This document shows positions 14,132 through 62,650 of a DNA stretch of 64,000 bases, piece by piece. The DNA comes from Candidatus Latescibacterota bacterium (GTDB lineage: Bacteria > Latescibacterota > UBA2968 > UBA8231): contig CBDCXV010000010.1 in assembly GCA_965223905.1 (NCBI GenBank), positions 608,001 to 672,000 on the forward strand, read 5' to 3'. Each line of letters starts with the position of its first letter. Position 1 is the stretch's first letter. Position numbers and translations under genes: made by a program. Below the pieces are notes generated by a model. That model was given only the letters and a program-made list of their open reading frames with translations. It was not told the origin of the DNA and did no database searches.

Positions 14132-14164
14132 GGTCCGTTCTTTCTGCGCCATCAGCTTTCCGGC

Positions 14165-36185: not shown

Positions 36186-37782
36186 GAGCCTGCCCCGCGT
36201 CCGGCGCTTCGGCGCGGCGCTCGCGGCCGGGTTCCTCCTTACCTGCTCACTTCCCTCCCCGCGGCCCCACTACCGCCCCGACCTGCCGAAGCCGGCCCGG
36301 GAGTTCCGGGGCGTATGGGTGGCGACGGTCGCCAACATCGACTGGCCGTCTGCGCCCGGCATTCCGAGCCGAACCCAGCAGGCCGAAGCGCTCGCCATCC
36401 TCGAGCGCTGCCGCGCCCTCAACTTCAATGCCGTGATCCTTCAGGTCAGGCCGCAGTGCGACGTCATCTACCCCTCCGCCCTCGAGCCGTGGTCCTTCTT
36501 TCTCAGCGGCGAGCAGGGGCTCCCGCCGCAGCCGATCTACGATCCGCTGAGCTTCTGGGTCGACGAGGCCCACGCCCGCGGCCTCGAGCTCCATGCCTGG
36601 GTCAATCCGTTTCGCGCCAACCACCCCGGGCACAGGGGCAAGCTGTCTCCCCGGTCGATCGTCTCGCGGCGCCCCGACCTCGCGCTCCGGCTAGGCGGCA
36701 AGGGCTACTACTGGCTCGACCCCGGGCGGCCCGAGGCGCGGGCGCACACCATGGGGGTCATCCTCGAGGTCGTCGAACACTACGACGTCGACGGCATCCA
36801 CCTCGACGACTACTTCTACCCGTACCCCTCCTACAACGACGGCGCCGATTTTCCCGATGGGGACAGCTGGGCGGCCTACCGCGATTCCGGGGGCTCCCTG
36901 TCTCGGTCCGACTGGCGCCGCGGCAACGTCGACGATTTCGTCCGCGATCTCTATCGGGAGGTCAAGCAGCGGCGGCCCGAGGTAAAGGTCGGCATCAGTC
37001 CGTTCGGCATCTGGCGGCCGGGGCATCCCCCCGGCACGGAAGTGGGAGTGGACCAGTACGAAACCCTCTTCGCCGACCCCCGCCTGTGGCTGCGGCAGGG
37101 ATGGCTGGACTACTGCGCCCCGCAGCTGTACTGGCGCGTCGCCTCCGAGACCCGGAGCTTCCCGGCCCTGCTGTCCTGGTGGCTGGAGAACAACCTCCAG
37201 AGCCGCCACATATGGCCGGGCCTGTACACCAGCAGAGTCAGCCAGGGCAAATGGCCGGCCAGGGAGGTGGTCGATCAGATTGCGCTTGCCCGCGACATCC
37301 TCGATAGCGACGGGCATCTGCACTTCAGCATGCGCGCCATCCAGGCCGGGAATGGCCCCTCGCGGCAGCTGACCACCTCGATCGGGGCCCGGATATACGC
37401 CCAGCCGGCGCTCGTTCCCCGCTCGTCGTGGCTCGACTCCACGCCGCCGCCCCCGCCGGAGGTTGCCCCGATGGTACGGAACGGAAGCCGGGTCGAACTC
37501 TCCTGGAAGCAGCCGGCCGGGGAAGACCCGTTTCTCTACGTGGTGTACTCGAAGGCGGGAACGAGCTGGACCTACGACATCCTTCCCGGCACCCGGACAG
37601 GCCACGAGCTCGATTCCCGGGGGCTGTCGTGGTCGGGACCCGGGCGCGCAGAGCGCCGGGAGTTTGCGGTAAGCGCCGTCGACCGCCTGGGGAACGAGAG
37701 CAATCCGGTGATGGTCGCCTGCCCGTCGCAGGCAATCCGCAGGGCGGTTGGAGCCCCGGCGCCTCAACGCAGGTGGGACTGA
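36178..37782 (+). CDS. Glycoside hydrolase-like family 10 (DUF187/YddW-type) protein with FN3-like tail
   Basis: REFRGVWVATVANIDWPS, ELHAWVNP, YDVDGIHLDDYFYPY, GISPFGIW, PQLYW, VSAVDRLGNES. Confidence 0.92.
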   Translation: MDRSLPRVRRFGAALAAGFLLTCSLPSPRPHYRPDLPKPAREFRGVWVATVANIDWPSAPGIPSRTQQAEALAILERCRALNFNAVILQVRPQCDVIYPSALEPWSFFLSGEQGLPPQPIYDPLSFWVDEAHARGLELHAWVNPFRANHPGHRGKLSPRSIVSRRPDLALRLGGKGYYWLDPGRPEARAHTMGVILEVVEHYDVDGIHLDDYFYPYPSYNDGADFPDGDSWAAYRDSGGSLSRSDWRRGNVDDFVRDLYREVKQRRPEVKVGISPFGIWRPGHPPGTEVGVDQYETLFADPRLWLRQGWLDYCAPQLYWRVASETRSFPALLSWWLENNLQSRHIWPGLYTSRVSQGKWPAREVVDQIALARDILDSDGHLHFSMRAIQAGNGPSRQLTTSIGARIYAQPALVPRSSWLDSTPPPPPEVAPMVRNGSRVELSWKQPAGEDPFLYVVYSKAGTSWTYDILPGTRTGHELDSRGLSWSGPGRAERREFAVSAVDRLGNESNPVMVACPSQAIRRAVGAPAPQRRWD

Positions 37783-38522
37783 AAGTCTTTACTGCTCGAC
37801 AGGATGTGGGCGCGCATGCGCTCGCGCGCGGCCTTGGAGTCCTTGCCGGCGAGGGCGTCGAACACCTCGTGATGCTGCGCCACCGAAAGGCGGGCACGGT
37901 TCGCGGCCCGGGATGACGAGGTTTCCAGGCTCCCCTTGATCCACTCCTGCAGGTAGCCGCGGGTGGTGCGCACCAGGTTGTAGAGGATCGAGTTGTGGGC
38001 GGCGCGGGCGACCTCGAGGTGGAAGGCGACGTCGAACTCGAGGAACTCCCCCGGCCGTTCGATCTCCTTCTCCATTCCGCGCAGCGTCGCCGCGATCGCC
38101 GCGAGGTTCTCCCCGGTGGCGCGCTCCGCCGCCCACGATGCCGTGTTGGACTCGAGCATGAGCCGCGTTTCGATGAGGTCGCCGACCTGCTTCGGGTCGA
38201 GGGCGAAGCCCCACTCGTAGGCGCGCCCGAGGTAGCTCTCGTTGTCCGCCACGAAGGTGCCGTCCCCGACGCGGCCGGTGAGGATGCCCATCACCGAGAG
38301 CGACCGCAGGGCCTCGCGGACCGAGGTTCTCCCGACCGCGAAGCGGCGGCACAGCTCCCGCTCGGACGGCAGCCGGTCCCCCGGTTTCAGCACGTTGCGC
38401 GAGATCAGGTCGATGATCTGGTCGACGATGGCGTCGCTGACCGAGCTTTTCGGGACCGGCCGCAGGAGTTCGGCTCCTTCGGCGGCTCCCGTCCGTCCCC
38501 GGCTCGTTTCACCAGAACTCAT
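37764..38522 (-). CDS. FadR/GntR-family transcriptional regulator
   Basis: LPSERELC..F.VGRTSVREALR HTH; FCD domain (D..FH...A..AHN). Confidence 0.93.
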   Translation of the reverse strand: MSSGETSRGRTGAAEGAELLRPVPKSSVSDAIVDQIIDLISRNVLKPGDRLPSERELCRRFAVGRTSVREALRSLSVMGILTGRVGDGTFVADNESYLGRAYEWGFALDPKQVGDLIETRLMLESNTASWAAERATGENLAAIAATLRGMEKEIERPGEFLEFDVAFHLEVARAAHNSILYNLVRTTRGYLQEWIKGSLETSSSRAANRARLSVAQHHEVFDALAGKDSKAARERMRAHILSSSKDFQSHLR

Positions 38523-38562
38523 GATTGCTTTTATCGGCCGCCTTTGTACTTTCCTGTTGCCA

Positions 38563-38575
38563 ATGGTCTGACCAT
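38563..38575. promoter_or_regulatory. FadR-subfamily operator palindrome
   Basis: ATGGTC-T-GACCAT in the 108-bp divergent intergenic region; matches the TGGTCnGACCA type of FadR/PdhR/LldR site. Confidence 0.75.
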
Positions 38576-38630
38576 CAGGCAGATTTTCTATTGATACTCA
38601 GCCGGCAGCGCGCTGTCAAGGAAGGTTGCC

Positions 38631-39278
38631 ATGCCCCGGATCCTCGACCTCGGCTCCCGCATCGAGCTCGTGCCGATGGACTTGCACTGCGAGGAGATCT
38701 CCATAGCCCTGTACCGCCAGGAGGAATCCGGCGGACCCGAGTTTCTCGTCCACACCTACAGCGGCAGGGAAGGCGCCAGCGAACGGGTCCGCTTCATATC
38801 CGCGGCGATGAAGGTGATGGGAAACGTCGAGGACTCCCCGGCGAACCCGGGCTGCCTGCGCTTCCCCTGCGGCCGCGGCCATGACCTGGCCTGCCGGCGG
38901 CTGTTCCTCGAGGCCTGCAAGCTCCCCAACGGCAGCGACCTCGCCCCCAGACCATTGTCCGTTTTCGACAAGAAGGCCGGCAAGGAGATGGTTGCCGTCA
39001 GCGAGGGGGAAGGCCTGTACAGGGTCAGCGCGGACGACCCGGGCGAAAGCATGACCTTGCGGCGCGTCGCCGCCACGGCAGGCGGCCTCGCCAAGCTCGG
39101 GGAAATGGAGCCGGCCGGCGACCGCCGGGACCAGATTCGCTTCGAGTGCGGCCAGGCGCACGACAACCTCGTCGCCGTGCTGCTGCCCCGGGCCCTCAAC
39201 GTGCGCACCGCCATGCGCGAGGCCGAGGCCGCGGCGGCGCGGGGAGTGCTCTCCGCTCCGAGCGCGCAGGACCGGTAG
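38631..39278 (+). CDS. Hypothetical protein with an internally duplicated RFxCGxxHD motif
   Basis: LRFPCGRGHD and IRFECGQAHD; AAGGAAGG ribosome binding site; first gene of the operon. Confidence 0.7.
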   Translation: MPRILDLGSRIELVPMDLHCEEISIALYRQEESGGPEFLVHTYSGREGASERVRFISAAMKVMGNVEDSPANPGCLRFPCGRGHDLACRRLFLEACKLPNGSDLAPRPLSVFDKKAGKEMVAVSEGEGLYRVSADDPGESMTLRRVAATAGGLAKLGEMEPAGDRRDQIRFECGQAHDNLVAVLLPRALNVRTAMREAEAAAARGVLSAPSAQDR

Positions 39279-39349
39279 CTCGAGGACATGAGGGGATCTG
39301 TAACCGGGACAGAATGAAGAAGCCAGGCAACTGAAAAGGAGAACGTCTC

Positions 39350-40411
39350 ATGGCAGACACCAAACCGATGACTGGCCGCGAGCGCGTGCTCGCGGCGCTG
39401 CGCCGGGAGCCGGTCGACCGCACGCCCGTGTGCAATCCGACCTCGGTGGCGACCGTCGAGCTGATGGACCTCGTCGCCGCCCCCTTTCCCGAGGCCAACC
39501 GCAAGCCCGAGCTCATGGCCCGCCTCGCCGCCACCGGGTACACCGAGCTCGGCTTCGACACCATCATGCCGGTATTCACGATCATCCAGGAGTCCTCCGC
39601 CCTCGGCTGCAAGATCCAGTGGGAGCAGAAGGACAACTGGCCGACGGTGCGCATGCGCGAGCCGATCTACGAGAAGCTGGAGGACATCGTCATCCCGGAC
39701 GATCTCTGCACCCACCCCGACACCCGATGTGTCCTCAAGGCAATCTCCATCCTCAAGCGGGAGTACGGCGACGAGGTCGCGGTGATCGGCAAGACCATGG
39801 GGCCCTGGTCGCTCGCCTACCACTGCTTCGGCGTCGAGCCCTTCCTGTTGCTGTCGCTCGACGATCCGGATGCCACGCGCGCCATCCTCGACAAGCTGAA
39901 GAAGGTGACCGTCGACTTCGGCGTCGCCCAGATCGAGGCCGGCGCCGACGCCCTGACCCTGCCCGACCACGCCACCGGCGACCTGGTCAGCGGCGAGTAC
40001 TACGAACGCTATCTGCGCGACATGCACATCGAGTTCAGCGAGAGCATCCCGATTCCGCTGATTCTCCACATCTGCGGGCGCACCGTCGACCGCATGGAGT
40101 ACATCGCCCAGACCGGGATGGCCGCCTTCCACTACGACTCGAAGAACAAGCCGCAGGAGTCCGTCGACATCATGCGGCAGCGGATCTCGCTGGTCGGCAA
40201 CATCAACAACCCGGAAACGCTGTTCTCCAAGGGTCCCGGGGAGGTGCGGGCGGAAGTCTACAGGAACCTCGACGCCGGCGTGCAGCTGGTCGGCCCGGAA
40301 TGCGCCATACCGCTGCAGACCTCGATCGAAAACCTGCTGGAAATCCCCAAGGCGGTGCAGGACTGGCACCGGGAGCGCGCCTCTTCGGCAACCAACGCGA
40401 CGCTGAATTGA
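39350..40411 (+). CDS. MtaA/CmuA-family (UroD-fold) methylcobamide methyltransferase
   Basis: RERVLAAL...VDRTPV, TVELMD..AAPFPEA...PELMARLA, GPWSLA, QIEAGAD; Zn motif LHICG and GPECAI. Confidence 0.88.
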   Translation: MADTKPMTGRERVLAALRREPVDRTPVCNPTSVATVELMDLVAAPFPEANRKPELMARLAATGYTELGFDTIMPVFTIIQESSALGCKIQWEQKDNWPTVRMREPIYEKLEDIVIPDDLCTHPDTRCVLKAISILKREYGDEVAVIGKTMGPWSLAYHCFGVEPFLLLSLDDPDATRAILDKLKKVTVDFGVAQIEAGADALTLPDHATGDLVSGEYYERYLRDMHIEFSESIPIPLILHICGRTVDRMEYIAQTGMAAFHYDSKNKPQESVDIMRQRISLVGNINNPETLFSKGPGEVRAEVYRNLDAGVQLVGPECAIPLQTSIENLLEIPKAVQDWHRERASSATNATLN

Positions 40412-40413
40412 CG

Positions 40414-41163
40414 ATGGCTGAACTGTCCGACATTCAGAACGAAACGATCCGCTTCGAAATCGAGGAATACGTAGAGCGGCCCGAGGAAATCGAGCGCACC
40501 GTCGAGCTGTTCGCCGGGGCCCGGCCGCTGATGCAGGAGATCGCCGCGGCCCTGATCGAGGGCGATCACGGGACCGTCGATCGGCTTTCGAGACAGGCCC
40601 TGGACGAGGGCATCGAGGCGCTCGAAGTCATGGACGATGGCCTCATCGCCGGCATGGGCATCGTCGGCATCAAGTTCCGCGAGAACTTCATCTTCGTGCC
40701 CGAGGTGCTCTCCTGCGCCCGCGCAATGAAAGCCGGCATGGCCCACATCGAGCCGATCCTGTCGGCCTCGGGCGTGAAGAAGGCCGGCACCGTGATCATG
40801 GGGACCGTCAAGGGGGACCTCCACGACATCGGCAAGAACCTCTGCATCATGATGCTTCGGGGATCGGGCTTCGAGGTCATCGACCTCGGCGTCGACACCT
40901 CCGAGGACGAGTTCATCGACGCCGTCGAGGAGCACGGGGCGCCGCTGATCGGGATGTCGGCGCTGCTGACCACGACGATGCCGAACATGGGCAAGACCAT
41001 CGAGGCGTTCATCGACGCCGACCTGCGGGACGACGTGCAGATCATGGTCGGCGGAGCGCCGGTGACCCAGGAGTTCGCCGACGACATGGGGGCCGACGGT
41101 TACGGCAAGGACGCCCTGGCCTGCGTCGCTCTCGCCAAGGAGCTGGGCGGCTCGAAGACGTGA
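40414..41163 (+). CDS. Corrinoid (B12-binding) protein
   Basis: Cap domain FVPEVL, GTVKGDLHDIGKN, DLGVD, SALLTTTM, MVGGAP. Confidence 0.95.
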   Translation: MAELSDIQNETIRFEIEEYVERPEEIERTVELFAGARPLMQEIAAALIEGDHGTVDRLSRQALDEGIEALEVMDDGLIAGMGIVGIKFRENFIFVPEVLSCARAMKAGMAHIEPILSASGVKKAGTVIMGTVKGDLHDIGKNLCIMMLRGSGFEVIDLGVDTSEDEFIDAVEEHGAPLIGMSALLTTTMPNMGKTIEAFIDADLRDDVQIMVGGAPVTQEFADDMGADGYGKDALACVALAKELGGSKT

Positions 41164-41174
41164 CCTGACACGAG

Positions 41175-41492
41175 ATGCGCAAGATCACCCAGGAGGAGTA
41201 CCAGGAGCGCCTCGACCGCATCACCGGGCTGTTCGCCGACATGGTCTCCCACGCCGACGAGCAGTCGCGCTACCGCTGCCCGTACCGCAACCGCCACGAC
41301 GAGTGCACGGCCAAGATCCGCTGCCGCAACCAGCTGCCGGCGCGCTCCGAGGGGTCTCCGCTCATCTGTGGCCACGACGGCAGCTTCGACTACCGCGACG
41401 CCTGGGACTCCGACCCCGGGGCCGTCGAGAAGGCCCGCGACAAGATGTCCCGCATCAGGGACAAGGCCGGAGACCGTCGCCGGAGCGGGTGA
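41175..41492 (+). CDS. Small Cys-rich hypothetical protein
   Basis: RCPYRNRHDECTAKIRCRNQ...ICGHD; abuts both neighbouring genes. Confidence 0.7.
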   Translation: MRKITQEEYQERLDRITGLFADMVSHADEQSRYRCPYRNRHDECTAKIRCRNQLPARSEGSPLICGHDGSFDYRDAWDSDPGAVEKARDKMSRIRDKAGDRRRSG

Positions 41493-41493
41493 C

Positions 41494-43149
41494 ATGGCCG
41501 CGGTGATCCACGACCAGGTGCGGACCGAGCTCTCCCCCGGCCGGACGATCTTCGACTACGCCGATGAGCTCGCCGTGCAGGTGCCCACCTCCTGCTACCG
41601 GACCGGCCACTGCCACGAGTGCGTGGTCGAGATCAGGAGCGGCATCGAGGCCCTGACGCCGCCGACGGAGGCGGAATCCTTCCTGCGCGACAACTACCGC
41701 CTCGCCTGCCAGGCCGAGATTCTCCGCGACGACGTCGACGTCGAGTTCGCACCGCTGCGGCGGACCCCGAAGATCCTGACCGCGGGCGTCGAAAAGGAGA
41801 TCCCCCTCGACCCGGTAGTGACGCGCCGGGGCGGCGGCGTGCTCTACGACGGCGAGCCGGTCGACGCCTACCGCGGGCACCTCTACGGGCTGGCGATCGA
41901 CCTCGGCACCACCACGGTGGTGATGCAGCTGATCGACCTGGAGTCGGGAGCGCCGGTCTCGGTCAGCTCCTTCGAGAATCCCCAGCGCTTCGGCGGCAGC
42001 GACATCATGCACCGCATTTCCTACGACGGCGGCGAATTCCGGGGAGAGCTGCAGCGGTCCCTGGCCAACGCTGTCAGCCACGAGATCCTCGAGCTGGGAA
42101 GGCGCTTCGGGTTCGCCCGGCAGGAGATCTACGAGATCGTCGTCGCCGGCAACTCGACCATGCGCGACCTGCTGTTCAAGCTCGACGTGCAGAGCATCGG
42201 GCAGAAGCCGTACAAATCGCTGATCGAGCACGAGTACCTCGAGGGCAACAGGCCGACCACCGCCCTGGTCGAGGACGCCCGCCGCCTCGGACTGCGCGCC
42301 AACCTGCGCACCAAGGTCTACAGCATGCCGCTGATCGCCAGCCACGTCGGCGCCGATACGGCCGCGGCCATCGCCGCCTGCGGCCTCGACCGCGACGCCG
42401 ACGAGGCCGCCATGATCGTCGATGTCGGCACCAACACCGAGGTCGTCGTCGCCGGGAGGGGCCGCATGCTGACCGCCTCCTGCCCGGCCGGCCCCGCCTT
42501 CGAGGGGGGCCTCGTGAAGTTCGGCATGCCGGGGTACGAGGGGGCGATCGAATCGCTGCGCCTCGCCCCGAACGGCAGCCGGGAGTTCGAGTACTCGACG
42601 ATCGGCGGGCTGCCGCCGCAGGGGATCTGCGGCTCCGGCCTGGTCGATCTCCTCGCCGAGCTGCGGCGCCGCGGACGGATGACGGAAATGGGGGTCTTCG
42701 GGGACAGGAAGCAGCGGCAGATGACCCTGATTCCCGAGCACGGCATCACCTTCTCGCGCGACGACGCCAGCAACCTCGCGCAGGCCAAGGCGGCCAACTA
42801 CTGCGGGCAGTTCATCACCCTGCGCGCTTTCGGAGTCGATCCCGGCGACGTCTCCAGGCTCTACCTCGCCGGAGGTTTCGCCAACTACATCGACGTCGGC
42901 AACGCCATCGACATCGGCTTCCTCGCCCCGGTGCCGCGGGAGCGCATCGTCAAGGTCGGCAACGCCGCGGTCCAGGGGGCCCGGGAGGTGCTGCTCAACC
43001 GGCGGCGGCGCGCCGAAATCGAAGCGCTCGTGCACGACATCGAGCACCTCGAGCTGGAGACGACGCCCGACTTCTTCGAGGTCTTCGTCGAGGGCTGCCA
43101 GTTCAAACCGATGCCGGCCCGCCTGGCCCCGGCCGCGGCGGGAGCGTGA
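41494..43149 (+). CDS. RACo/RamA-like ASKHA reductive activator of corrinoid proteins with N-terminal 2Fe-2S domain
   Basis: C-x5-C-x2-C...RLACQ, AIDLGTTT, NPQ.FG.D, GNSTM, DVGTNTE, GPAFEGG, GICGSG, LAGGF, GNAA. Confidence 0.93.
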   Translation: MAAVIHDQVRTELSPGRTIFDYADELAVQVPTSCYRTGHCHECVVEIRSGIEALTPPTEAESFLRDNYRLACQAEILRDDVDVEFAPLRRTPKILTAGVEKEIPLDPVVTRRGGGVLYDGEPVDAYRGHLYGLAIDLGTTTVVMQLIDLESGAPVSVSSFENPQRFGGSDIMHRISYDGGEFRGELQRSLANAVSHEILELGRRFGFARQEIYEIVVAGNSTMRDLLFKLDVQSIGQKPYKSLIEHEYLEGNRPTTALVEDARRLGLRANLRTKVYSMPLIASHVGADTAAAIAACGLDRDADEAAMIVDVGTNTEVVVAGRGRMLTASCPAGPAFEGGLVKFGMPGYEGAIESLRLAPNGSREFEYSTIGGLPPQGICGSGLVDLLAELRRRGRMTEMGVFGDRKQRQMTLIPEHGITFSRDDASNLAQAKAANYCGQFITLRAFGVDPGDVSRLYLAGGFANYIDVGNAIDIGFLAPVPRERIVKVGNAAVQGAREVLLNRRRRAEIEALVHDIEHLELETTPDFFEVFVEGCQFKPMPARLAPAAAGA

Positions 43150-44762
43150 GGCCGGTGAGCACCGCGACGTCAGCCGCCGGTCCCTGGAACAAGCGCTCGC
43201 TGCGCCACCTGCTCGAACGCACCTGCGAGTTCGCCACCGTCGTCGAGCTGGTCAACTCGCGCGGCGTCATCACCGAGCGCGGTGGCAGCAAGGTGATGCA
43301 GCTGGCCCGCGGCCTCGCCGACCTGCCCGGGATCCACGCCCTGAGCATCACCGACAACCCGGGCGGCAACGCCGTTCTCAGCGCCGACACCCTCGGCTTC
43401 GACCTGCTCTCGCGGGGGCAGGACGTCATCATCCACCTCTCCTGCAAGGACTGGAACCGCAACGGCCTGCAGAGCCACGCCTGGCAGCTGGCCAGCGAGG
43501 GGTTCGAGAGCATTCTCGCCCTCTCAGGCGACTACCCCGCCGACGGCTACCGCGGCCGCGCCAGCGGCGTCTTCGACATCGACTCGGTCGGCCTCCTGAA
43601 AATGCTCTCCGACATGAATCAGGGGCTGGAAACGCGGACCCCAAAGGGCCGCCGGGCGCGCATGAAACGGACCGACTTCTTCCTCGGCGCCGTGGTGAAC
43701 AACTACAAGCGTCACGAGCGCGAGGTCATGCCGCAGTACTTCAAGCTCGCCGCCAAAGTCGCGGCCGGGGCCGCCTTCGTCATCAACCAGATCGGCTACA
43801 ACGCCCGCAAGATGGACGAGCTGGTCAAATACATGGCGCTCAAGGGAATGAACGTTCCGGTCCTCGCCAACGTCTACGTCCTCAGCGGACCCGCGGCGCG
43901 CTACTTCAACGCCGGCCGCATTCCCGGAGTGGTGGTGTCGGACGAGCTGCTCGCCGAAGTCGAGAGGTACGCCCGCGGCCGGGACAAGGGCAAGGGATTC
44001 CTTCTCGAGTTCGCCGCCAGGCAGTGCGCCGTCGCCCGCGGCCTCGGCTACCGCGGCGCCTACCTCGGCGGCCACCTCAAACAGGATGATTACGCGCGCA
44101 TTCTCGAGCTGACGGCCTCCTACGGCGACGGCGACTGGCGGGATTTCGCCGCGGATTTCCGCTACGGTTTCCCGGACGAGTTCCACTTCTTCGAGGCCGA
44201 CCCGGAGACCGGACTCTCCTCCACCGAGATCAACCGCGAGTACGAGGCTTCGCGAACCCCCGAGGCCCGCCGCGCCCTGCGCCGCCAGGTGCCGCTGGCC
44301 TACAAGCTCAACCGGGCCGCCCACGAGGTTCTGTTCGAGCCGGACCGCCCGGCATTCAAGGCCGGCGAAAAACTGTTCGCCGCGGCCGATAACAGCGAGG
44401 GGCCGCGCAGGCTCCTTCACGCCGTCGAGCAGGCGGTCAAGGTGCCGGCCTTCGACTGCCGCGACTGCGGCGACTGCTCCCTGCCGGACATCGCCTTCCT
44501 CTGCCCGGAGTCGCAGTGCGTCAAGAACCAGCGCAACGGTCCCTGCGGCGGCACCCGCGACGGCAAGTGCGAGGTCGGGGAGAAGGACTGCATCTGGGCG
44601 CGGGCGTACGACCGCCTCAAAGCCTACGGGGAGGAGGAAGGGATGCTGGAGCGGCCGGTCGTCTACCGCGACGGCACTCTCGAAGGGACCAGCGCCTGGG
44701 GCAACACCTTCCTCGGACGCGACCACCACGCCGCGAACCATTCCGGGGCGCAGGCGGAATGA
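43146..44762 (+). CDS. metF: Methylenetetrahydrofolate reductase (MetF) fused to a C-terminal Cys-rich MetV-like domain
   Basis: ITDNPGG, HLSCKDWNR, LSGD, FDIDSV; C-terminal CRDCGDC...CPESQC.KNQRNGPCGG...C...CIW. Confidence 0.88.
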   Translation: MRPVSTATSAAGPWNKRSLRHLLERTCEFATVVELVNSRGVITERGGSKVMQLARGLADLPGIHALSITDNPGGNAVLSADTLGFDLLSRGQDVIIHLSCKDWNRNGLQSHAWQLASEGFESILALSGDYPADGYRGRASGVFDIDSVGLLKMLSDMNQGLETRTPKGRRARMKRTDFFLGAVVNNYKRHEREVMPQYFKLAAKVAAGAAFVINQIGYNARKMDELVKYMALKGMNVPVLANVYVLSGPAARYFNAGRIPGVVVSDELLAEVERYARGRDKGKGFLLEFAARQCAVARGLGYRGAYLGGHLKQDDYARILELTASYGDGDWRDFAADFRYGFPDEFHFFEADPETGLSSTEINREYEASRTPEARRALRRQVPLAYKLNRAAHEVLFEPDRPAFKAGEKLFAAADNSEGPRRLLHAVEQAVKVPAFDCRDCGDCSLPDIAFLCPESQCVKNQRNGPCGGTRDGKCEVGEKDCIWARAYDRLKAYGEEEGMLERPVVYRDGTLEGTSAWGNTFLGRDHHAANHSGAQAE

Positions 44763-44784
44763 ACCATTTTTCCTGGAAAAGCGA

Positions 44785-45861
44785 ATGAAGCTGCAGGACC
44801 CCGATCTCGACTTCGTCATCGTCGGCGAGAATATCCACACCACGCGGGTGGTGATGCGCCGCGGCAAGCTGGTGACCGCGGACGCCGACGGCCGCGAAGC
44901 GGTGCGCTACACCTCGGCCGCGGGCGAACGCCGCCACCTGGCTATCCCCGAGGCGGTGAAGCGCACCCAGGATTACGAGGAGGGGCGCGTCAAGCACGTC
45001 AAGATCGCCCTGCAGGGGGCGATGTCCGGGGAGGGCGAACCCGCGGCAGAGGGAATGCAGTACCTCGAACGGCTGGTTCAGCGCCAGGAACAGGCTGGGG
45101 CCGACTTCCTCGACCTCAACGTCGACGAGATCTCGCTGAAACTCGAAGAGCAGAAGGCGGCGATGGCCTGGCTCGTGCGCACTGTGCAAGGCATGTCGGA
45201 AATCCCGGTGTCCGTCGATTCCTCCAATGTCGAGACCATCGCCACCGGCCTGGAGGCGTGCGACAAGTCCAAGGGGCGGCCGCTGCTCAACTCCGCCTCG
45301 CTCGAGCGCCTCGAAGCTCTCGATCTCGCCGTCGAGAACGACGCCGGCGTCATCGTCACCGCGGCCGGCGATTCCGGGATGCCGGAGAGCGCCGAGGAGC
45401 GCATCGGCAATGCCTCGCGCATGGTCGATGCGGCTTTCGACAGGGGGATTGCCGACAGCGACATCTACATCGACCCGCTGATATTCCCGATCTCGGTGGA
45501 CGGCCGCTTCGGCCTTCACAGCTTCGAGGCGATCCGCGGCCTGCGCGAGAAATACGGCCCCCGCATTCACATAACCGGGGGCATGAGCAACGTTTCATTC
45601 GGCATCCCGAGCCGCAAGTGGATCAACGACGTCTTCATGATGCTCGCGGTCGAGGCCGGGGCCGACAGCGGCATCATCGATCCGGTGACCAGCCGGCCGG
45701 ACAAGGTGTTCGCCCTCGACCGCAGCTCACGTCCCTACCAGCTGGCCGAGGACGTGCTGATGGGCAGGGACGAGCACTGCGCCGGGTACATCCGGGCTTG
45801 GCGAAAGGGGGAGCTCGGAGACGGCGGCCCCGCGCGCCGCAGGCCGCGGCCGAGGAGATGA
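44785..45861 (+). CDS. Pterin-binding (DHPS-fold) methyltetrahydrofolate:corrinoid methyltransferase (AcsE / MetH folate module)
   Basis: IVGENI, GADFLDLN, SVDSS, LLNS, IDPL, GMSNVSFG, GIIDP. Confidence 0.88.
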   Translation: MKLQDPDLDFVIVGENIHTTRVVMRRGKLVTADADGREAVRYTSAAGERRHLAIPEAVKRTQDYEEGRVKHVKIALQGAMSGEGEPAAEGMQYLERLVQRQEQAGADFLDLNVDEISLKLEEQKAAMAWLVRTVQGMSEIPVSVDSSNVETIATGLEACDKSKGRPLLNSASLERLEALDLAVENDAGVIVTAAGDSGMPESAEERIGNASRMVDAAFDRGIADSDIYIDPLIFPISVDGRFGLHSFEAIRGLREKYGPRIHITGGMSNVSFGIPSRKWINDVFMMLAVEAGADSGIIDPVTSRPDKVFALDRSSRPYQLAEDVLMGRDEHCAGYIRAWRKGELGDGGPARRRPRPRR

Positions 45862-46871
45862 AACCGCTTCTCGAGCGCCTGGAGGAAGGCCCACTCCTCT
45901 ACGACGGCGCCTTCGGCACCGAGCTGTTCGCCCGCGGCATCGAGCTGCCGAACAGCGCCATGGCCAACCAGCTGCATCCCGACGCCGTCCTCGACATCCA
46001 TCGCCGCTACATCGAGGCGGGCTCCGAGATGATCCACGTCAACACCTTCGTCGGCTCTCCGCTTCACCTCGAGATGGCCGACCCCGAAGCCGATGCCGGC
46101 CGCATCGCCGCCCTGGCCGTCGCCCACGCCCGCCGGGCGGCCGCGGAAGCAGGGCGCGATATCTATGTCGCAGGCAGCCTCGGCCCTTCCCCCGGCGCCA
46201 TCGAAGCGGATGCCGGCGGCACCGATTTCGGCATCCCGGACGCCAAGGTCCGCGACGCCCACCAGCGGGTCGCCGCGGCCCTGGCAGAGGGAGGGGTCGA
46301 CCTCTTCGTCATCGAAACGATGTTTTCCGCCAACGAAGCGGCGATCGCCGTCGACGTCGCGCGCCGTTTCGGGCTTCCCGTCGCCCTCTGCCTCACCTAC
46401 AAGTACACGCGGGACCGCCATACCCGGGGGATCGTCTACAGGACCGACTGGGGCCACTCCGCAGGGGACCTGCTCGAAGTCCTCGCCTCGGGGAAGCACT
46501 CCAACGGCGACGACCTCTTGGAATCGGTCGACCTGCTCGGGCTGAACTGCGGCGCCGAGCAGCGCCGCCGCGAGCACACCGGCATGCCGTACGCCCTGCT
46601 CGGCATCGAGCAGCTCAATGAGGCGATGGATGCCCGCGGCATGGCCCGCAAGAAGACGATCGCCTTCCCGAACGCGGGCATGCCCCGTCTCGACGAGCGC
46701 CAGCGCACCGTGTATTCGCAGACCCCGGAAGAGATGGCGGCCGAGGTCCCCGCCCTGCTCGCCGCCGGCGCCGCGGTCGTCGGGGGATGCTGCGGAACCG
46801 ACCCCGACCATATCCGTGGATTCGCCGCAGCCATGGCCGCGGCCGGTTGGCCGCGGCAGCAGGAGCAATAG
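45858..46871 (+). CDS. Homocysteine S-methyltransferase domain protein (stand-alone MetH homocysteine module)
   Basis: [42 protein letters not shown]. Confidence 0.9.
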
Positions 46872-46874
46872 CAG

Positions 46875-47141
46875 ATGGCCCAATACCAGATCCTCTTCTG
46901 GCAGGACATCCCCGCCCAGGTCCGCGTCTTCGACGGGCGCCGGCCGCTTTCGCAAAAAATGCCCGACCGCTTCCAGGAGGCGATCGACCAGTCGGCGATG
47001 GAGCAGGGGCTCGAGGGCACCGACGACTACCTCGAGCAGTGGAGCTGGACCGCCAGGCAGGAGCGGCCCGGCAGCCCGCAGGAGGTGCTCGAAGCGCTCC
47101 TGACCGAGCTCGAAGTGGAGTTCGACCGCAGGGACTCATGA
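46875..47141 (+). CDS. 'Virulence factor' (Virulence_fact) family small protein, typical of split-MetH/corrinoid clusters
   Basis: [27 protein letters not shown]. Confidence 0.8.
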
Positions 47142-49036
47142 GCACCTACCCCAAGACCTACGACGTCGTCGTCGTCGGGGGCGGTCACGCCGGCACCGAG
47201 GCGGCCCTCGCCGCCGCCCGCATGGGGGCCGAAACCCTGCTGCTGACCATGAACCTCGACACCGTGGCGCAGATGTCGTGCAACCCCGCCATCGGCGGTA
47301 TCGGCAAGGGCCACATGGTCGTGGAGATCGACGCCCTCGGGGGCGCCATGGCCGCCAACACCGACCGCTCCGGGATCCAGTTCCGCCGCCTCAACACCAG
47401 CCGCGGTCCCGCGGTGCGCGCCTGCCGCGCCCAGTGCGACAAGAAGGTGTACCAGCTCGAAATGAAGTACACCTGCGAAGCCCAGGACCGCCTCGACCTG
47501 CGCCAGGGAATGATGGAGAGCCTGATCGTCGAAGGCGGCCGCGTCACTGGGGTCGGGGTCAAGGGGGGGATCCTCTACCGGGGGCGCACCGTCATCCTGA
47601 CCACGGGAACCTTCCTCAAGGGCAGGATCCACGTCGGCGACTTCAGCTACAACTCCGGCCGCGCCGGGGAGGCGGCCGCCGACAGGGCCTCGGAGGGTCT
47701 CGCCTCCCTCGGGTTCGAGATCGGGCGCCTGAAGACCGGCACCCCGCCCCGCGTCAACGGCCGCAGCATCGACTTCGACGCCCTCGAGAGGCAGCCGGGC
47801 GACGACCCGCCGCGAATGTTCTCGTACGAAAGCGAGGGCCCGGTGCTGCCGCAGCTCCCCTGCTGGATCGCCTACACCAACAGCGAAACCCATGACCTCA
47901 TCCGCGGCAACCTCGGCCGCTCTGCCATGTACAGCGGCCGCATCGAGGGGGTGGGACCGCGCTACTGCCCCTCGATCGAGGACAAGATCGTCAAGTTCGC
48001 CGACCGCGAGCGCCACCAGGTCTTCGTCGAGCCGGAGGGAGTCCGCACCCTCGAGTTCTACATCAACGGCCTGTCGATGAGCCTGCCCGAAGAGCTCCAG
48101 CACGACATCCTGCGCACCGTTCCCGGTCTCGAGCGCGCCGAGATCATGCGCCCCGCCTACGCCGTCGAGTACGACTACGCGCCGCCGACGCAGCTGTACG
48201 CGTGGCTGGAAACCAAGCTCGTCGACTCGCTCTTCTTCGCCGGGCAGATCAACGGCACCACCGGGTACGAGGAAGCCGCGGCCCAGGGCCAGCTCGCCGG
48301 CATCAACGCCGTGCTCAAGGGGCGCGGCGAGGAGCCGTTCGTGCTGAAGCGCTCCGAGGCTTACATGGGGGTGCTGGTCGACGACCTGGTGACCAAGGGA
48401 ACGCCGGAGCCGTACCGGATGTTCACCTCGCGCGCCGAGTACCGCCTGCTGCTGCGCGAGGACAACGCCGACTACCGGCTGATGGAACACGGGCGCCGCT
48501 TCGGAATGGTGGGAGACAGTGCCTGGAACCGGTTCCGGCGCAAGCAGCGGGACGTCGCCGAGGAGCTGGCGCGGCTGCGCAGCGTGCGCATCCGGCCCGG
48601 GGAAGGAGTGAACGAGGTGCTGGAAAGACAGGGCACGGCGAAGATCTCCGAGGCGGCCCTGCTCGCCGACCTGCTGCGGAGGCCGCAGCTCGGGTACGAC
48701 GACGTCTGCGAGCTGTCGCCCCCGCCGCGGCCCCTGCCAGCCGACGCCGCCGAGCACGTCGAGGCGGAGATCAAGTATGAAGGGTACATCGACCGGCAGC
48801 AGCAGGAGGTCGCCAAGGTACGGCGCCTCGAGGAGCTCGTCATACCGGCCGATTTCGACTTCGAGGCGGAGGCCGACAAGCTGTCGACGGAGGCGCGCCA
48901 GAAGCTCTCCGCGGTGCGGCCCCGCACCCTGGGACAGGCCTCCCGGATCTCGGGTGTCTCCCCCGCGGACGTATCCTCCCTGATGGTCATCCTGCACGCC
49001 CGCCGGGCAAATGCGGATACGGTTCCACCCCGGTGA
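47138..49036 (+). CDS. mnmG: tRNA uridine-5-carboxymethylaminomethyl modification enzyme MnmG
   Basis: [68 protein letters not shown]. Confidence 0.98.
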
Positions 49037-51698: not shown

Positions 51699-52547
51699 GT
51701 GAGCAAGAGTTTCTGGGATTCCACCCCACGCCATTTCCCCACCCAGGAGGAGTTGGCGGCCCTCGACAGGGACCTGCGGTTTCACCCCGCGCCGGCTACC
51801 GCCGGGGAGAAGCTGAGCCCCGGGCAGCTGGAGTCCTACAACCGCGAGGGGTACCTGCTGCCGTTCCGGGTGTTCCCGGAGGGCGAGATCGGACAGTTCC
51901 GCGCCCATGTCGACGGCTGGCTCGAGGAGACGCAGCGCCAGGGGGCCGACAGCTACTCGATCGTTTCGGCGCACATGAAGCACGGCATCGTCTGGGACCT
52001 CCTCAGGGACCGGCGCATCACCGCCTTTGTCGGCGACATCCTCGGCGGGGACTTCATCTGCTGGGGCGCCCACTTCTTCTGCAAGATGCCGGGCGACGGC
52101 AAGCGCGTCTCCTGGCACCAGGACGCCAGCTACTGGCCCCTGAGCCCCTCGAAGACGGTCTCCGTCTGGCTCGCCGTGGACAGGGCCGACCGCGAAAACG
52201 CCTGCATGCAGTTCGTCGCCGGCTCCCATCTTCACGGCCACCTCGATTTCATCCGCAGCGCCGAGTCGGAGGCCAACATCCTCAACCAGACCGTCCCGGA
52301 GGCGGAACGCTTCGGGCACGGGGTCGTCGACGTCGAGCTCGAAGCGGGAGAGATATCCCTGCACTCCGACCTGCTGCTGCACGGCTCGGCGCCGAACCTG
52401 TCCGACCGCCGCCGCTGCGGCCTCACCCTGCGCTACGCCGCCACCGAGGTGCGCGCCGAGTACAACTGGAACTCCGAGGGAGTCGTCGTCAGCGGCAGCG
52501 ACCCGAGCGGACACTGGGCCGATCCGCCGCGCCCCGAGATCGACTGA
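51699..52547 (+). CDS. PhyH-family Fe(II)/2-oxoglutarate dioxygenase
   Basis: WHQDASYW, VWLA.D, GSH, LLHGS.PN.S.RRR.GLTLRY. Confidence 0.92.
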   Translation: MSKSFWDSTPRHFPTQEELAALDRDLRFHPAPATAGEKLSPGQLESYNREGYLLPFRVFPEGEIGQFRAHVDGWLEETQRQGADSYSIVSAHMKHGIVWDLLRDRRITAFVGDILGGDFICWGAHFFCKMPGDGKRVSWHQDASYWPLSPSKTVSVWLAVDRADRENACMQFVAGSHLHGHLDFIRSAESEANILNQTVPEAERFGHGVVDVELEAGEISLHSDLLLHGSAPNLSDRRRCGLTLRYAATEVRAEYNWNSEGVVVSGSDPSGHWADPPRPEID

Positions 52548-54256: not shown

Positions 54257-55165
54257 CTACGATTTGGCCGGCACTACCTCCCAGCGGTGATGCCTGGCGC
54301 CCCTGGCCGCCTCAGCTGCCAGGGCCTCTGCCCACATCCGCGCCCACTCGCCGTGATCGGTCAGCACCGAGTCCGGGTTCGAGCGGCTGCGCACCACGAA
54401 GTCCGGGTAGAACGGGCGCCCGGTCGGGGTGCCGGTCTTCTGGTATCGCAGGTCCATGCTCCAGCGCACCGTGTCGGTGTTGTTCGGGGTCGAGCGATGG
54501 GGGATCTCCTTGCTCATCAACAGCAGGTCCCCCTTCTCCATCGGCAGGGTCAGCGGTTCGACGTCGGGCATCGCCTCTTCGGCGATCACCGTCCCCCTGC
54601 CCTGGATGGTCTCGTGTTTCCACAGCCCGGTCTTGTGCACCCTGGGGATGATCTGGAGACAGCCGTTTTCCGGCGTCGCCGGGACCATCGGCAGCCATAC
54701 CGTCAGGATGAAGTGGGGATCCGCCTCTTCCCAGGTGACGCCGGCGTCCTGGTGCCAGGGCGCCACGTGGCCGTCCCCCATCTTGGTGGTGCCGTGCGGC
54801 AGCTTGCCGCGGATGTGCTGGATCGGGCTGCAAGTGATCTCCGGCCCGACGATGGGTTCGACGAGACCCAGCAGGTTGTCGTTGAGCAGAAATTCGAACG
54901 ACGCCTTCCCCCGCAGCCGGTATATGTCGAGGTCGTCGTAGATCTCCGCGCACTGGTCGTTGATCAGGGCGAGCCGCTTGTCGAACGGGGCATCGGCGTG
55001 CGGATCCCCGATCTTCCCCTCTGCCAGCAGCTCGTTCGCCCGCCGGTCGATGTGCGCCTCGTACTCCTCGATCACGGGGTCGATGTCGCTGTCCGAGAGG
55101 GCGCCCCGCAGCAGCAGGAAGCCGTCGTTGTCGAACATCTTCAGTTGTTCTTCGGTCAGTCCCAT
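54257..55165 (-). CDS. PhyH-family Fe(II)/2-oxoglutarate dioxygenase
   Basis: PWHQDAG, VWLP, NGCL, PHRSTPN, RWSMDLRY. Confidence 0.92.
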   Translation of the reverse strand: MGLTEEQLKMFDNDGFLLLRGALSDSDIDPVIEEYEAHIDRRANELLAEGKIGDPHADAPFDKRLALINDQCAEIYDDLDIYRLRGKASFEFLLNDNLLGLVEPIVGPEITCSPIQHIRGKLPHGTTKMGDGHVAPWHQDAGVTWEEADPHFILTVWLPMVPATPENGCLQIIPRVHKTGLWKHETIQGRGTVIAEEAMPDVEPLTLPMEKGDLLLMSKEIPHRSTPNNTDTVRWSMDLRYQKTGTPTGRPFYPDFVVRSRSNPDSVLTDHGEWARMWAEALAAEAARGARHHRWEVVPAKS

Positions 55166-55406
55166 GTCAGCGCTCCGATTTTGTGAAGGGTGCTTTCTCA
55201 AAGGTGCCACTTGGAGGGGAAGTCATCAAGAATTCGCGTCGATACTCGCGATTCCTGTTCCTATTCAATTTCCTGATTATGTCATATTTTCCGGCGCCTT
55301 ATACCCACCAGGGCAACATACGACCGATGACCGGCACCCGACTTATGGGCCGTGCAACAGGCGGGCGGAGTCGGATTCCCCAATTAGTTCAGTTAGAGCG
55401 AAAACA

Positions 55407-58406: not shown

Positions 58407-58409
58407 GAG

Positions 58410-58904
58410 ATGGCACGGCTCAAGAGATTTGTCCAGATCGACAGGCCGGCCTCCGCGCCCCGGTACGAACTGCGCGTGCGCAGTACCGGCCTGACCGAGG
58501 CCGAATACGAGATCTGGCAGATGCCTTCCCAAGCTACCCCTCAGGTGACCTGTCCCCTGCGGGTGGCGGGGCTTCGCGGGCGCAACCTCGAGCTGGTCGA
58601 GCACCGGGTGCTGAAGCGGCTTTCCCGGTCCGGCGTCAAGCTCTCCGGCGGGGCTGGCGCCAGCAAAAACGGCTACGCCCTCAGCGAAGACCTGGCGCTG
58701 ACCCTGGGGCTGTTGTTCCGAACCCTGGCGCCCATGCGAAGCCGCGACAACATGCGGGCAGTGGCAGAAGGGATCGAGGCAATGGAACACGAGGAGGCCG
58801 CGTACTGGCTCGGCATGGCAATGCATCGGAAGCAACCGCGCCGGGTGCTGACCGCCTTGCGCTTCCTTCTGACCGAGCCCAGGCGAGCAGAAGGGCGATC
58901 ATGA
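58410..58904 (+). CDS. Small accessory protein of the DUF499/DUF1156 system (occupies the DUF3780-type position)
   Basis: Starts 3 nt after the DUF499 gene; helical C-terminus EEAAYWLG..MHR...RRVL.ALR.LL. Confidence 0.65.
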   Translation: MARLKRFVQIDRPASAPRYELRVRSTGLTEAEYEIWQMPSQATPQVTCPLRVAGLRGRNLELVEHRVLKRLSRSGVKLSGGAGASKNGYALSEDLALTLGLLFRTLAPMRSRDNMRAVAEGIEAMEHEEAAYWLGMAMHRKQPRRVLTALRFLLTEPRRAEGRS

Positions 58905-61154: not shown

Positions 61155-61155
61155 C

Positions 61156-62115: not shown

Positions 62116-62510
62116 CGGCGCCGCCTGACATACGGGAGGTGGACGGGTTGCATGTATTGCAGGAGTGGGAGGGCTATGTGGTCAGTATCGAAGACGATGC
62201 CTTCGTGGCTCGGCTCGTCGATGTGACTGCTGGCAAGACATACGCAGACGAAGAAGCCATCATTCCTCTAGACCAAGTCTCCGAGCATGACGCCGCCAAC
62301 ATGGAGATAGGAAGTATCTTTCGCTGGGTGATCGGATACGAATTTTCGCCTGGGCAAACCCGCAAGTCGGTGTCGCGGATCGTTTTTCTCGACCTGGGCA
62401 GGATGACCGAAGACGACCTGCGGGCTGGCCGTGAGTGGGCGGACAAGATCGCGCGGGGAGCTCAATCCATGACGAGTACGGACCGCACCCTGCGTAATAT
62501 GCTGCCCTGA
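62112..62510 (+). CDS. Hypothetical small beta-rich protein (possible OB-like fold)
   Basis: GTGA overlap with the previous gene; LQEWEGYVVSI..DAFVARLVD...GSIFRWVIGY...RIVF. Confidence 0.6.
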   Translation: MTAPPDIREVDGLHVLQEWEGYVVSIEDDAFVARLVDVTAGKTYADEEAIIPLDQVSEHDAANMEIGSIFRWVIGYEFSPGQTRKSVSRIVFLDLGRMTEDDLRAGREWADKIARGAQSMTSTDRTLRNMLP

Positions 62511-62650
62511 CCGCACCGAGGCATTTTGCACGACGACGACATGCGCGGGGCCACGCGCCCGGCGTACTCCTCTTGCATCCGGGATGGATTGTCCGTCGAG
62601 CCGCTGGGGGACGCCTGCCGCCCCGCTCGGGAATACGGTGGAACGAGACA

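Follow-up and report, generated by a model that had tools for sequence, protein, structure and literature searches.

A corrinoid methyl-transfer operon with a FadR-type regulator, a split methionine synthase and a putative G1-G2 donor-side methyltransferase in Candidatus Latescibacterota

The locus described here raises the question of whether an MtaA-like methyltransferase loads methyl groups onto a corrinoid protein or takes them from it. It lies in a 64,000-nucleotide (nt) stretch (contig CBDCXV010000010.1, positions 608,001 to 672,000; this whole stretch is called the window) of a metagenome-assembled genome (MAG) from an uncultured, sponge-associated Candidatus Latescibacterota bacterium, and consists of a run of genes, G1 to G10 (Table 1), divergent from a gene for a FadR-type regulator. 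The MtaA-like protein, G2, is preceded by a protein of no named family, G1, and is followed by a stand-alone corrinoid protein (CP; G3), a small Cys-rich protein (G4), an ATP-dependent corrinoid activase of the RACo type (G5), a methylene-tetrahydrofolate (THF) reductase fused to a MetV-like part (MetFV; G6), and separate pterin (G7) and homocysteine (Hcy; G8) methyltransferases. The operon is proposed to combine a split methionine synthase with an inducible corrinoid methyltransferase system of three components, and the balance tips towards G1-G2 being a donor-side methyltransferase (MT1) for a methyl-sulfur, sulfonium or methyl-halide substrate, feeding THF and methionine.

As the window is rich in GC (60-71%), its gene models were drawn from GC3 (third-position GC) frame plots together with stop-to-stop open reading frames, and then scanned with Pfam and NCBIfam; the Pfam scans covered the 64 kb in 60 frames (11 + 32 + 17 gap frames), to which the statements below on families absent from the window refer. 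The scans bore out nine genes and a divergent FadR gene as described in an earlier, sequence-only reading (the first-pass annotation), and the domains agree with its view of corrinoid methyl transfer on the basis of a split methionine synthase and an ATP-dependent activase. The spacings from G1 through G9 are, in order, 71, 2, 11, 1, -4, 22, -4 and 3 nt. The count of nine genes was correct, but the co-oriented run extends to a tenth, mnmG (G10), which shares 4 nt with G9.

G2 is the sole PF01208 gene in the window, and its URO-D TIM-barrel spans residues 9-338. Its placement, made from NCBIfam scores and an alignment to Methanosarcina mazei MtaA (4ay7), is at the level of the family: it passes the 'MtaA/CmuA family' model TIGR01463 (248.8 bits, cut-off 235.4) and PRK06252 (252.6, cut-off 244), and fails the equivalog models of MtaA (NF040654, 232.1, cut-off 400) and MtbA (NF041608, 192, cut-off 600). 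The best solved relative was 4ay7 (E 2.9e-52, residues 1-335), the other PDB sequence matches (19 hits in all) being uroporphyrinogen decarboxylases (UroD) with E of at least 8e-14. In the alignment, LHICG falls on LHICG and P-E-C on P-G-C, and the zinc triad H240-x-C242...C318 is invariant in 32 sequences. In the UroD superfamily, His-Cys-Cys ligands are described for S- and Se-methyltransferases, whereas O-methyltransferases replace one or both Cys (Kountz & Balskus, PMC10418091). Because the zinc ligands of G2 are His-Cys-Cys, its leaving group would be sulfur, selenium or halide.

Relatives of G2 were numerous, with 3565 of 7999 scored candidates at E<=0.001. The best 120 homologues were all at least 80% identical, carried MtaA/CmuA-type labels and named Acidobacteriota, Latescibacteria, Gemmatimonadetes, Poribacteria and Bryobacteraceae; G2 is 80-86% identical across five phyla. 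None of these 120 exceeds 374 amino acids (aa), and therefore none is a methyltransferase-corrinoid fusion. When CmuA was sought on plasmids by tblastn of PLSDB, only hemE-like matches of 24-29% identity were obtained, in 27 records. No MttB, MtaB or MtvB was found in the window, as had been noted in the first reading, and G2 was the only match to a methyltransferase of the methyl-donor type. The conclusion drawn then, that the operon has no recognisable MT1, was a mis-framing, as MT1 enzymes of the UroD superfamily are established for methoxy-aromatics and haloalkanes (OdmB, VdmB, MtoB, CdmB and CmuA, PMC13222342), as well as for a thioether carboxylate (MtpA, 10.1101/548461).

The survey of related loci comprised the best 80 of 487 confirmed G2 matches (503 stretches matched), all at least 80% identical and thus close relatives only, against which eleven window proteins were run by tblastn. 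G1 lies directly upstream of G2 in 79/80 loci from five phyla, and the median distance between them is 30 nt. Seven loci have more than 200 nt there, and in five of these, all from Poribacteria (L052, L058, L059, L066 and L078), ruvC stands between the two genes, the sole interruption of the pair that was seen. Judged by this linkage, G1 is the obligate partner of G2, and it presumably binds it. Four longer G1 proteins were considered as fusions and rejected as Rosetta-stone evidence: two appear to be G1 read through a frameshift into the neighbouring G2 and one MetFV read likewise into G1, the fourth seems to have a spurious N-terminus, and all of them merely repeat the adjacency.

G1 itself had no match in Pfam (E<=0.01) or NCBIfam, and its best match among PDB sequences had an E of 0.076. 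A profile search of 1.84 billion representatives yielded 276 clusters at E<=0.001, a compact family whose members are ~210-aa proteins and fragments, and a word-indexed search gave 961 clusters at 90% identity; among 120 listed clusters there was no Pfam domain, and all given names were 'hypothetical protein'. The protein, predicted to be soluble and acidic, consists of two tandem copies of a ~100-aa unit (N-half against C-half, hhalign 97.7%, E 1.4e-12, 60 columns). Both halves have an F-x-C-G-x2-H motif that opens a helix; each of C80, H84, C173 and H177 is retained by 165-172 of the 177 full-length members and C96 by 156, and the C-terminal tail R-G-V-L-x-A-P-S-x-Q is nearly invariant. An AlphaFold2 model from 62 sequences was confident (predicted local distance difference test, pLDDT, 94.1; predicted template modelling score, pTM, 0.88) and is built by repetition of a beta-beta-beta-alpha-(beta)-alpha unit; a Cys2His2 metal site is probable at the pseudo-dyad. 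When it was compared by Foldseek with 350,542 PDB chains, no match was found at E<=0.001 (best E 0.14, template modelling score <=0.24). A minority subfamily lacks the Cys/His residues. Five divergent members (P0215, P0220, P0236, P0252 and P0255), 22-27% identical, end in R-G-Q-M-T-T-x-T-L-G-F-S, and two members of this divergent subfamily are without both Cys-x3-His motifs.

In 39/80 loci the pair continues into G3 and mostly into G4 (37 loci) and G5 (36 loci), an arrangement of G1 to G5 that recurs beyond chance. Of the loci whose flanks are complete, 22 combine a divergent FadR gene with the MetFV branch, and 12 of these add the pterin and Hcy methyltransferases and the Virulence_fact protein (G9), and two of those 12 also mnmG; the whole branch occurs without FadR in two. 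Eight others have only the Hcy methyltransferase after RACo (two of them with the Virulence_fact gene) and lack FadR, and neither a pterin methyltransferase nor MetF lies within 10 kb. The pair stands alone in 31; ten more pair-only loci and several CP loci end at contig edges.

These arrangements were placed on a quick maximum-likelihood tree of G1+G2 from 79 loci (51 Poribacteria, 20 Latescibacterota, four Acidobacteriota, one Gemmatimonadota, one Lentisphaerota and two without a phylum), from which L055 (Lentisphaeria), with no space upstream of G2, was omitted. The pair-only loci form two Poribacteria clades (38 rows, support 100; three rows, support 97) and the Hcy-only loci a single Latescibacterota clade (support 100), and at least six changes of arrangement are required. 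As they are confined to two clades, the 41 pair-only loci reflect few events. Outside these clades G1-G2 was always beside a corrinoid module, so that the conservation of G2 with the cluster, on which the first-pass annotation depended, held in every sampled lineage bar these two.

Median identities to the window proteins were 83% for G2, 81% for G3, 69% for G5, 66% for G6, 64% for G7, 62% for G9, 61% for G8, 58% for FadR, and 51% for both G1 and G4. Recent horizontal transfer was rejected as the main cause of the 80-86% identity of G2. The neighbours diverge normally (51-69%) and the tree largely follows the phyla, so that constraint accounts for how similar G2 and G3 have stayed.

The FadR-type protein has an N-terminal GntR winged helix-turn-helix, a C-terminal FCD domain and a palindrome in the divergent promoter region, as in members of the GntR/FadR subfamily. 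Orthologues 54-65% identical occupy the same divergent position in 25/80 loci, and the gene co-occurs with MetFV in 22/22 of the full-flank loci that have it and is found in 0/8 Hcy-only loci. The 108-nt region between regulator and G1 contains the palindrome ATGGTCTGACCAT, and the operator claimed for the gene in the first reading was borne out, being kept in related loci. GGTC[A/T]GACC occurs 30 times in 1,487,902 nt of these loci, and 24 of the copies sit <=300 nt upstream of G1, where they are found in 22/25 FadR loci, in 0/13 CP loci without FadR and in 0/41 pair-only loci; two further copies lie higher up in the same intergenic region, and one FadR locus (L004) has no copy. GGTCwGACC is therefore a clear phylogenetic footprint of the putative operator of the regulator. 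The restriction of FadR and operator to the form that contains MetFV would be typical of an inducible catabolic operon. The nearest NCBIfam models of the regulator are LldR, NanR, PdhR and GlcC, all far below cut-off. These four sense small carboxylates, which gives only a hint that the ligand here may be one as well.

From these patterns we infer in which direction the methyl group moves, what class of substrate is used and how the operon is regulated. G1-G2 is the likeliest donor side because of the eight loci with G1-G2, CP, RACo and Hcy methyltransferase, which form a complete set of donor, CP, activase and acceptor only if G1-G2 is the donor, and because the inducible regulator is tied to the THF/MetF form. 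As MT1, the zinc site of G2 would take a methyl group from a soft leaving atom, of a methyl thioether or thiol, a sulfonium such as dimethylsulfoniopropionate (DMSP) or a methyl halide, and load it onto Co(I) of G3. G1, pseudo-dimeric and with its probable Cys2His2 site, would be needed to bind or activate the substrate or for G2 to function. From G3 the methyl group could pass to homocysteine via G8, yielding methionine, or to THF via G7, after which G6 would oxidise methyl-THF to methylene-THF for the C1 pool; the G3-G7-G8 trio could also act as an ordinary methionine synthase. G4 and G5 would re-reduce Co(II) to Co(I) at the expense of ATP, and a FadR-type repressor on GGTCTGACC would release the operon upon binding a small, probably carboxylate, ligand. 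The earlier proposal that the MtaA-like protein is itself the entry enzyme is favoured in part, by the module combinations and by a zinc site that fits a thioether or halide, but it overlooked the G1 partner.

Several observations weigh against a donor-side role. In 41/80 loci, housekeeping genes surround G1-G2 and no gene within 10 kb encodes a corrinoid protein, and no conserved transporter, sulfur or halogen gene flanks the cluster in the loci surveyed. The conservation of G2 (83%) and G3 (81%), higher than that of the other genes in the cluster, is unusual for a substrate-specific MT1, although CmuA too is described as 64-84% identical across phyla, its accessory protein CmuC being 34-39% identical (PMC4197683). 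A simple thioether is a thermodynamically unfavourable methyl donor to Co(I) (10.1101/548461), so the reaction would run uphill if such a donor fed THF, which favours an activated donor or the reverse direction. Where THF accepts the methyl group, this argues for a sulfonium or halide donor; for the synthesis of methionine, a plain thioether could still do.

In the reverse direction, G2 would stand on the acceptor side (MT2) like methanogen MtaA, which we consider rather unlikely: methyl-THF from G6 would load G3 via G7, G8 would methylate homocysteine, and G1-G2 would pass methyl groups to another thiol or selenol (sulfide, selenide, mercaptopropionate or a G1-bound thiol) for detoxification or the synthesis of methylthio compounds. 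The closeness of G2 to methylcobamide:coenzyme M (CoM) methyltransferases agrees with this, as do the invariant Cys of G1, the usual reductive direction that MetF would keep, the activation of thiol nucleophiles ascribed to His-Cys-Cys zinc (PMC10418091) and the favourable direction from methylcobalamin to a thiol (10.1101/548461). However, the eight Hcy-only loci would then hold two acceptors and no donor, the inducible FadR-type regulator is tied to the form with the THF branch, and the 64-kb window has no genes for CoM biosynthesis. G1-G2 could also be an accessory of what is merely a RACo-reactivated split methionine synthase with MetF, as a regulatory or chaperone pair or one for dealkylation or repair of methyl-cobalamin or the CP. 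G3, G7, G8 and G5 do equal the split MetH and RamA-like protein of Phaeobacter inhibens, which also needs an unexplained ~200-aa accessory protein, DUF1638 (PMC5764234), and the extreme conservation of G2 and G3, the housekeeping neighbourhoods of the pair in 41 loci and the lack of any conserved transporter would fit such a role. We nevertheless regard it as improbable, since G1 is not DUF1638 by Pfam and tracks G2, neither RACo nor the CP, a dedicated FadR repressor and operator are unexpected for constitutive methionine synthesis, a core-MetE homologue is also present in the window, and the split methionine synthases described in PMC5764234 and PMC12478193 function without an MtaA-like protein.

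Sponges are rich in methoxylated metabolites. A reading of G1-G2 as an O-demethylase or methanol-type MT1 for methoxylated aromatics, methanol or a methylated amine might appeal on that ground, and UroD-superfamily O-demethylases with CP, MT2 and activase are described as common in anaerobes (PMC13222342, PMC10418091). It is very improbable, as O-methyltransferases of the superfamily replace zinc Cys (PMC10418091) and G2 keeps both in 32/32 sequences; moreover, the match of G2 to MtaA has an E of 3e-52, the 19 PDB sequence matches include neither an O-demethylase nor a CdmB chain, and the Mlp-type SCMT relatives are given as ~17% identical to OdmB and VdmB (PMC10418091). With a donor-side role retained as the preferred reading, a more specific form of it can be tentatively put forward, though we consider it less likely than not: G1-G2 might be a two-subunit donor enzyme, composed of a Cys2His2 metalloprotein of new fold and a methanogen-type zinc methyltransferase, by which aerobic sponge symbionts of at least five phyla demethylate DMSP, methylmercaptopropionate (MMPA), dimethyl sulfide (DMS), methanethiol or methyl halides into the methionine/folate C1 pool via a shared B12 protein. 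If true, this would be a corrinoid path parallel to DmdA, methanethiol oxidase and cmu.

The remaining genes of the operon have the parts of a split methionine synthase, that is, a separate corrinoid protein, pterin and homocysteine modules and a RACo activase. G3 has the DxHxxG motif as DLHDIG at residue 135, and its closest NCBIfam models are MtgC and pyl_corrinoid. G4 had no sequence match in Pfam, NCBIfam or the PDB, and its AlphaFold2 model is weak (pLDDT 74, pTM 0.38). Its C35, C44, C50 and C65 are invariant in 36 sequences, within the motif R-C-P-Y-x-N...C-T-A-x-F-G-C...C...D-Y-R-x-A-W. G4 is present in 37 loci: in 19 it is fused in frame to RACo and makes up the N-terminal ~100 of 630-650 residues, and in the other 18 it is separate, just upstream. 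As it is fused to RACo in these 19, G4 is a detachable RACo module and not an independent unknown, predicted to be a metal-binding module of the activase. Neither G1, as the partner of G2, nor G4 can thus be set aside as a bystander, as the first-pass annotation had done.

G5, which has ferredoxin-domain Cys at 34, 40, 43 and 72, is matched by the AcsV and RamA models below cut-off. Its RACo domains are in place, and the MetH reactivation domain PF02965 is absent from the window, as is DUF1638 (PF07796). G6 begins at a GTG that overlaps the G5 stop by 4 nt, an N-terminus backed by the homologue P0123, and has eight Cys in residues 438-482. G7 scores 208 bits with PRK07535 (cut-off 259) and also matches the MetH pterin module. 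The zinc motif of G8 is Cys231, Cys311 and Cys312, and the protein matches MetH residues 43-183 and 'BHMT'/PRK07534. G9 occurs in 18/39 CP-containing loci, two Hcy-only loci among them, and travels with the MetF, pterin and Hcy modules. The last gene, mnmG, appears from its overlap to be translationally coupled to G9, by an attachment that is lineage-specific: it follows the operon only in L001 and L011 (2/80 loci; 17962-19839 in L011). L001, a Candidatus Latescibacterota MAG chromosome (OZ242214.1), is the closest genome, with a G2 98% identical; in L011, the sole comparison, mnmG is 77% identical versus 85% for G2 and 89% for the CP. No riboswitch was found by Rfam at the gathering threshold over the window, a tRNA gene being the sole match, and a promoter scan found 0 promoters and seven terminator-like sites versus 5.0 expected.

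Table 1. Features of the window, with positions counted from its first nucleotide
Feature	Positions	Strand	Description
FadR-type regulator	37764..38522	-	252 aa; Pfam GntR HTH 69 bits and FCD 85 bits; divergent from operon
Operator candidate	38563..38575	.	Palindrome ATGGTCTGACCAT (core GGTCTGACC); 66 nt upstream of G1 start codon
G1	38631..39278	+	215 aa, soluble; no family match
G2	39350..40411	+	MtaA/CmuA-family (UroD-superfamily) corrinoid methyltransferase; PF01208 E 2e-64
G3	40414..41163	+	Stand-alone corrinoid protein; B12-binding cap PF02607 and B12-binding (Rossmann) domain PF02310
G4	41175..41492	+	105 aa, Cys4 module; no family match
G5	41494..43149	+	RACo/RamA-type ATP-dependent corrinoid activase; N-terminal 2Fe-2S Fer2; PF00111, PF17651, PF14574
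G6	43146..44762	+	Methylene-THF reductase PF02219 fused to MetV-like Cys-rich DUF5981/MTHFR_C (PF12225)
G7	44785..45861	+	Pterin-binding methyltransferase (methyl-THF / corrinoid protein); Pterin_bind PF00809
G8	45858..46871	+	Homocysteine S-methyltransferase module; S-methyl_trans PF02574 E 5e-51
G9	46875..47141	+	Small Virulence_fact protein; PF13769 68 bits
G10 (mnmG)	47138..49036	+	tRNA U34 cmnm modification, uses methylene-THF; TIGR00136 857 bits
tRNA gene	6267..6339	-	Single; only Rfam match in window
Core MetE	13142..14152	-	336 aa; only PF01717 catalytic domain; PRK04326 160 bits, cut-off 406
PhyH	5220..6002	+	Nearest ectoine hydroxylase model, below cut-off
PhyH	51699..52547	+	Nearest 'chlorinating enzyme' model, below cut-off
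PhyH	54257..55222	-	
Defence island	54960..64000	+	HmaC-like DUF499 ATPase 54960..58406, DUF7680 58410..58904, NsnA/NsnB/NsnC 58901..62115, HmaB/DUF1156 methylase from 62573, continuing past window edge

The surroundings of the cluster varied with lineage. Pair-only Poribacteria loci were flanked by PQQ-like, beta-lactamase-like, RuvC, IMPDH, Mur and MraW genes and Hcy-only loci by GFO/IDH/MocA and HAD genes, with nothing consistent in the others. Inserts between RACo and MetFV were mostly mobile elements, plus PhyH. In Poribacteria, an IS605 OrfB/TnpB-like gene, a DDE transposase, an Eco57I-type methylase and an HNH nuclease split the operon by 1-5 kb with no gene lost (L009 13895-15031; L012 16024-17034 and 17451-18992; L013 11543-11953 and 17276-18844). 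PhyH occurs within the RACo-MetFV interval of eight Poribacteria loci (L009, L012, L013, L015, L017, L018, L024 and L031, at about 13.8-16.6 kb), and a PhyH of an unrelated subfamily in that of two Latescibacterota loci (L014 17501-18523; L040 14647-15885), so that an O2-dependent enzyme is embedded there in a corrinoid operon. With two unrelated subfamilies, each specific to a lineage, PhyH was set aside as a clue to mechanism. One Acidobacteriota contig (CBDFLD010000014.1) holds two copies of the cluster ~60 kb apart (L008 and L010), with identical G1+G2 sequences and all match coordinates identical, either a recent duplication or an assembly repeat.

Elsewhere in the window, three genes of the PhyH family of Fe(II)/2-oxoglutarate dioxygenases were found, in agreement with the earlier statement that the host encodes O2-dependent dioxygenases, and a defence island fills the 3' end. 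The core MetE, ~25 kb from the operon, is a second methionine synthase homologue, of the cobalamin-independent type. Some short MetE proteins have been reported to accept methyl groups from corrinoid proteins. Core-MetE in marine bacteria is discussed by Mausz et al. 2025 (PMC12478193).

B12-dependent methyl shuttles have long been regarded as a speciality of anaerobes. The 2025 work on MtgBCDE describes aerobic marine bacteria that run such a shuttle on a split methionine synthase (PMC12478193), and the same chassis is found here, with a different entry module, in uncultured sponge-associated Latescibacterota, Poribacteria, Acidobacteriota, Gemmatimonadota and Lentisphaerota. If the donor were a methyl-sulfur, sulfonium or methyl-halide compound, the operon would be a new sink for climate-relevant marine trace compounds, an added demand for B12 in sponge holobionts and a direct route from donor to methionine. 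G1 and the RACo Cys4 module are concrete new structural and biochemical targets, and the FadR operator offers a handle on the inducer.

Among the closest known systems are those of aerobes, and they run against the earlier claim of an undescribed pathway in a non-methanogen, as both MtgBCDE with MetF2 and RamA (PMC12478193) and cmu (PMC4197683) share the architecture. Price et al. 2018 describe a three-part methionine synthase with a RamA-like protein and DUF1638 in P. inhibens (PMC5764234). In Ruegeria pomeroyi, according to Mausz et al. 2025, the corrinoid and pterin modules also serve the demethylation of glycine betaine by MtgB, MetF2 oxidises methyl-THF, and additional MT1 enzymes are suggested to feed the same core (PMC12478193). 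As described, these systems resemble the window operon in their stand-alone CP, bidirectional pterin methyltransferase and separate Hcy methyltransferase, in a RamA/RACo activase that replaces the MetH reactivation domain, in a MetF paralogue that oxidises methyl-THF, and in the use of a single CP for catabolic demethylation and methionine synthesis (PMC12478193; PMC5764234). They differ in the MT1, which in R. pomeroyi is MtgB (PF06253, MttB family), a family absent from the window, with glycine betaine as the substrate; here the candidate is of MtaA/CmuA type and accompanied by G1. The window operon also has no DUF1638 in the cluster and an extra Cys4 module on RACo, forms one operon under a FadR-type regulator, and comes from other phyla.

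The cmu genes of the aerobe Methylobacterium extorquens CM4 (CmuA, CmuB, CmuC, MetF2, FolD and PurU) are alike in combining an MtaA/CmuA-family MT1 with a corrinoid partner, a pterin-type transfer to THF and oxidation by a MetF paralogue, and in an MT1 highly conserved across phyla beside a poorly conserved accessory protein (PMC4197683). G2 is likened to CmuA by the family model and the layout. CmuA is a methyltransferase-corrinoid fusion, whereas here there are two genes 2 nt apart; the window has no FolD or PurU and just one pterin methyltransferase besides its one URO-D gene, and adds an Hcy methyltransferase, RACo and G1.

The methanogen enzymes MtaA, MtbA, MtsA and MtpA provide the best sequence match (4ay7), the same fold and an aligned H-x-C...C triad. 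MtsA and MtpA indicate that the family is able to take methyl groups from thioethers; MtpA is described as an MMPA:cob(I)alamin methyltransferase whose forward reaction is thermodynamically unfavourable (10.1101/548461). G2 differs from the methanogen CoM methyltransferases in falling below their equivalog cut-offs, in the acceptor, which there is CoM and here would be THF and homocysteine, in having a G1 partner and in its host, a bacterium with dioxygenases. Type 1 mlp clusters share, outside methanogens, an SCMT-like UroD protein with His-Cys-Cys, a CP and a bacterial RACE/RACo, and they have been proposed to act in methyl-sulfur or methyl-selenium metabolism and in the recycling of methionine (PMC10418091). 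They are described there with at least Mlp2 and Mlp3 (several UroD proteins), with no THF methyltransferase and in obligate anaerobes only, whereas the window has a single UroD gene, THF and Hcy methyltransferases, O2-dependent enzymes nearby and G1. The OdmB, VdmB, MtoB and CdmB systems likewise have a UroD MT1, a CP, a THF methyltransferase and an activating enzyme, but from a distant branch of the superfamily, CdmB being without zinc and the O-demethylases without Cys-Cys ligands, and they are described from anaerobes with no link to methionine synthase (PMC13222342). An MtaA-like gene paired with a G1-type protein in these phyla was not found in the literature searched, where the supplements and figures of PMC12478193 and PMC10418091 could list related clusters. 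By analogy with these systems, the architecture of the operon is already known, its logic being shared with aerobic MtgBCDE/MetF2/RamA and with cmu; the two new parts are the RACo Cys4 module and the G1 family, which is confidently modelled and has no neighbour in the PDB.

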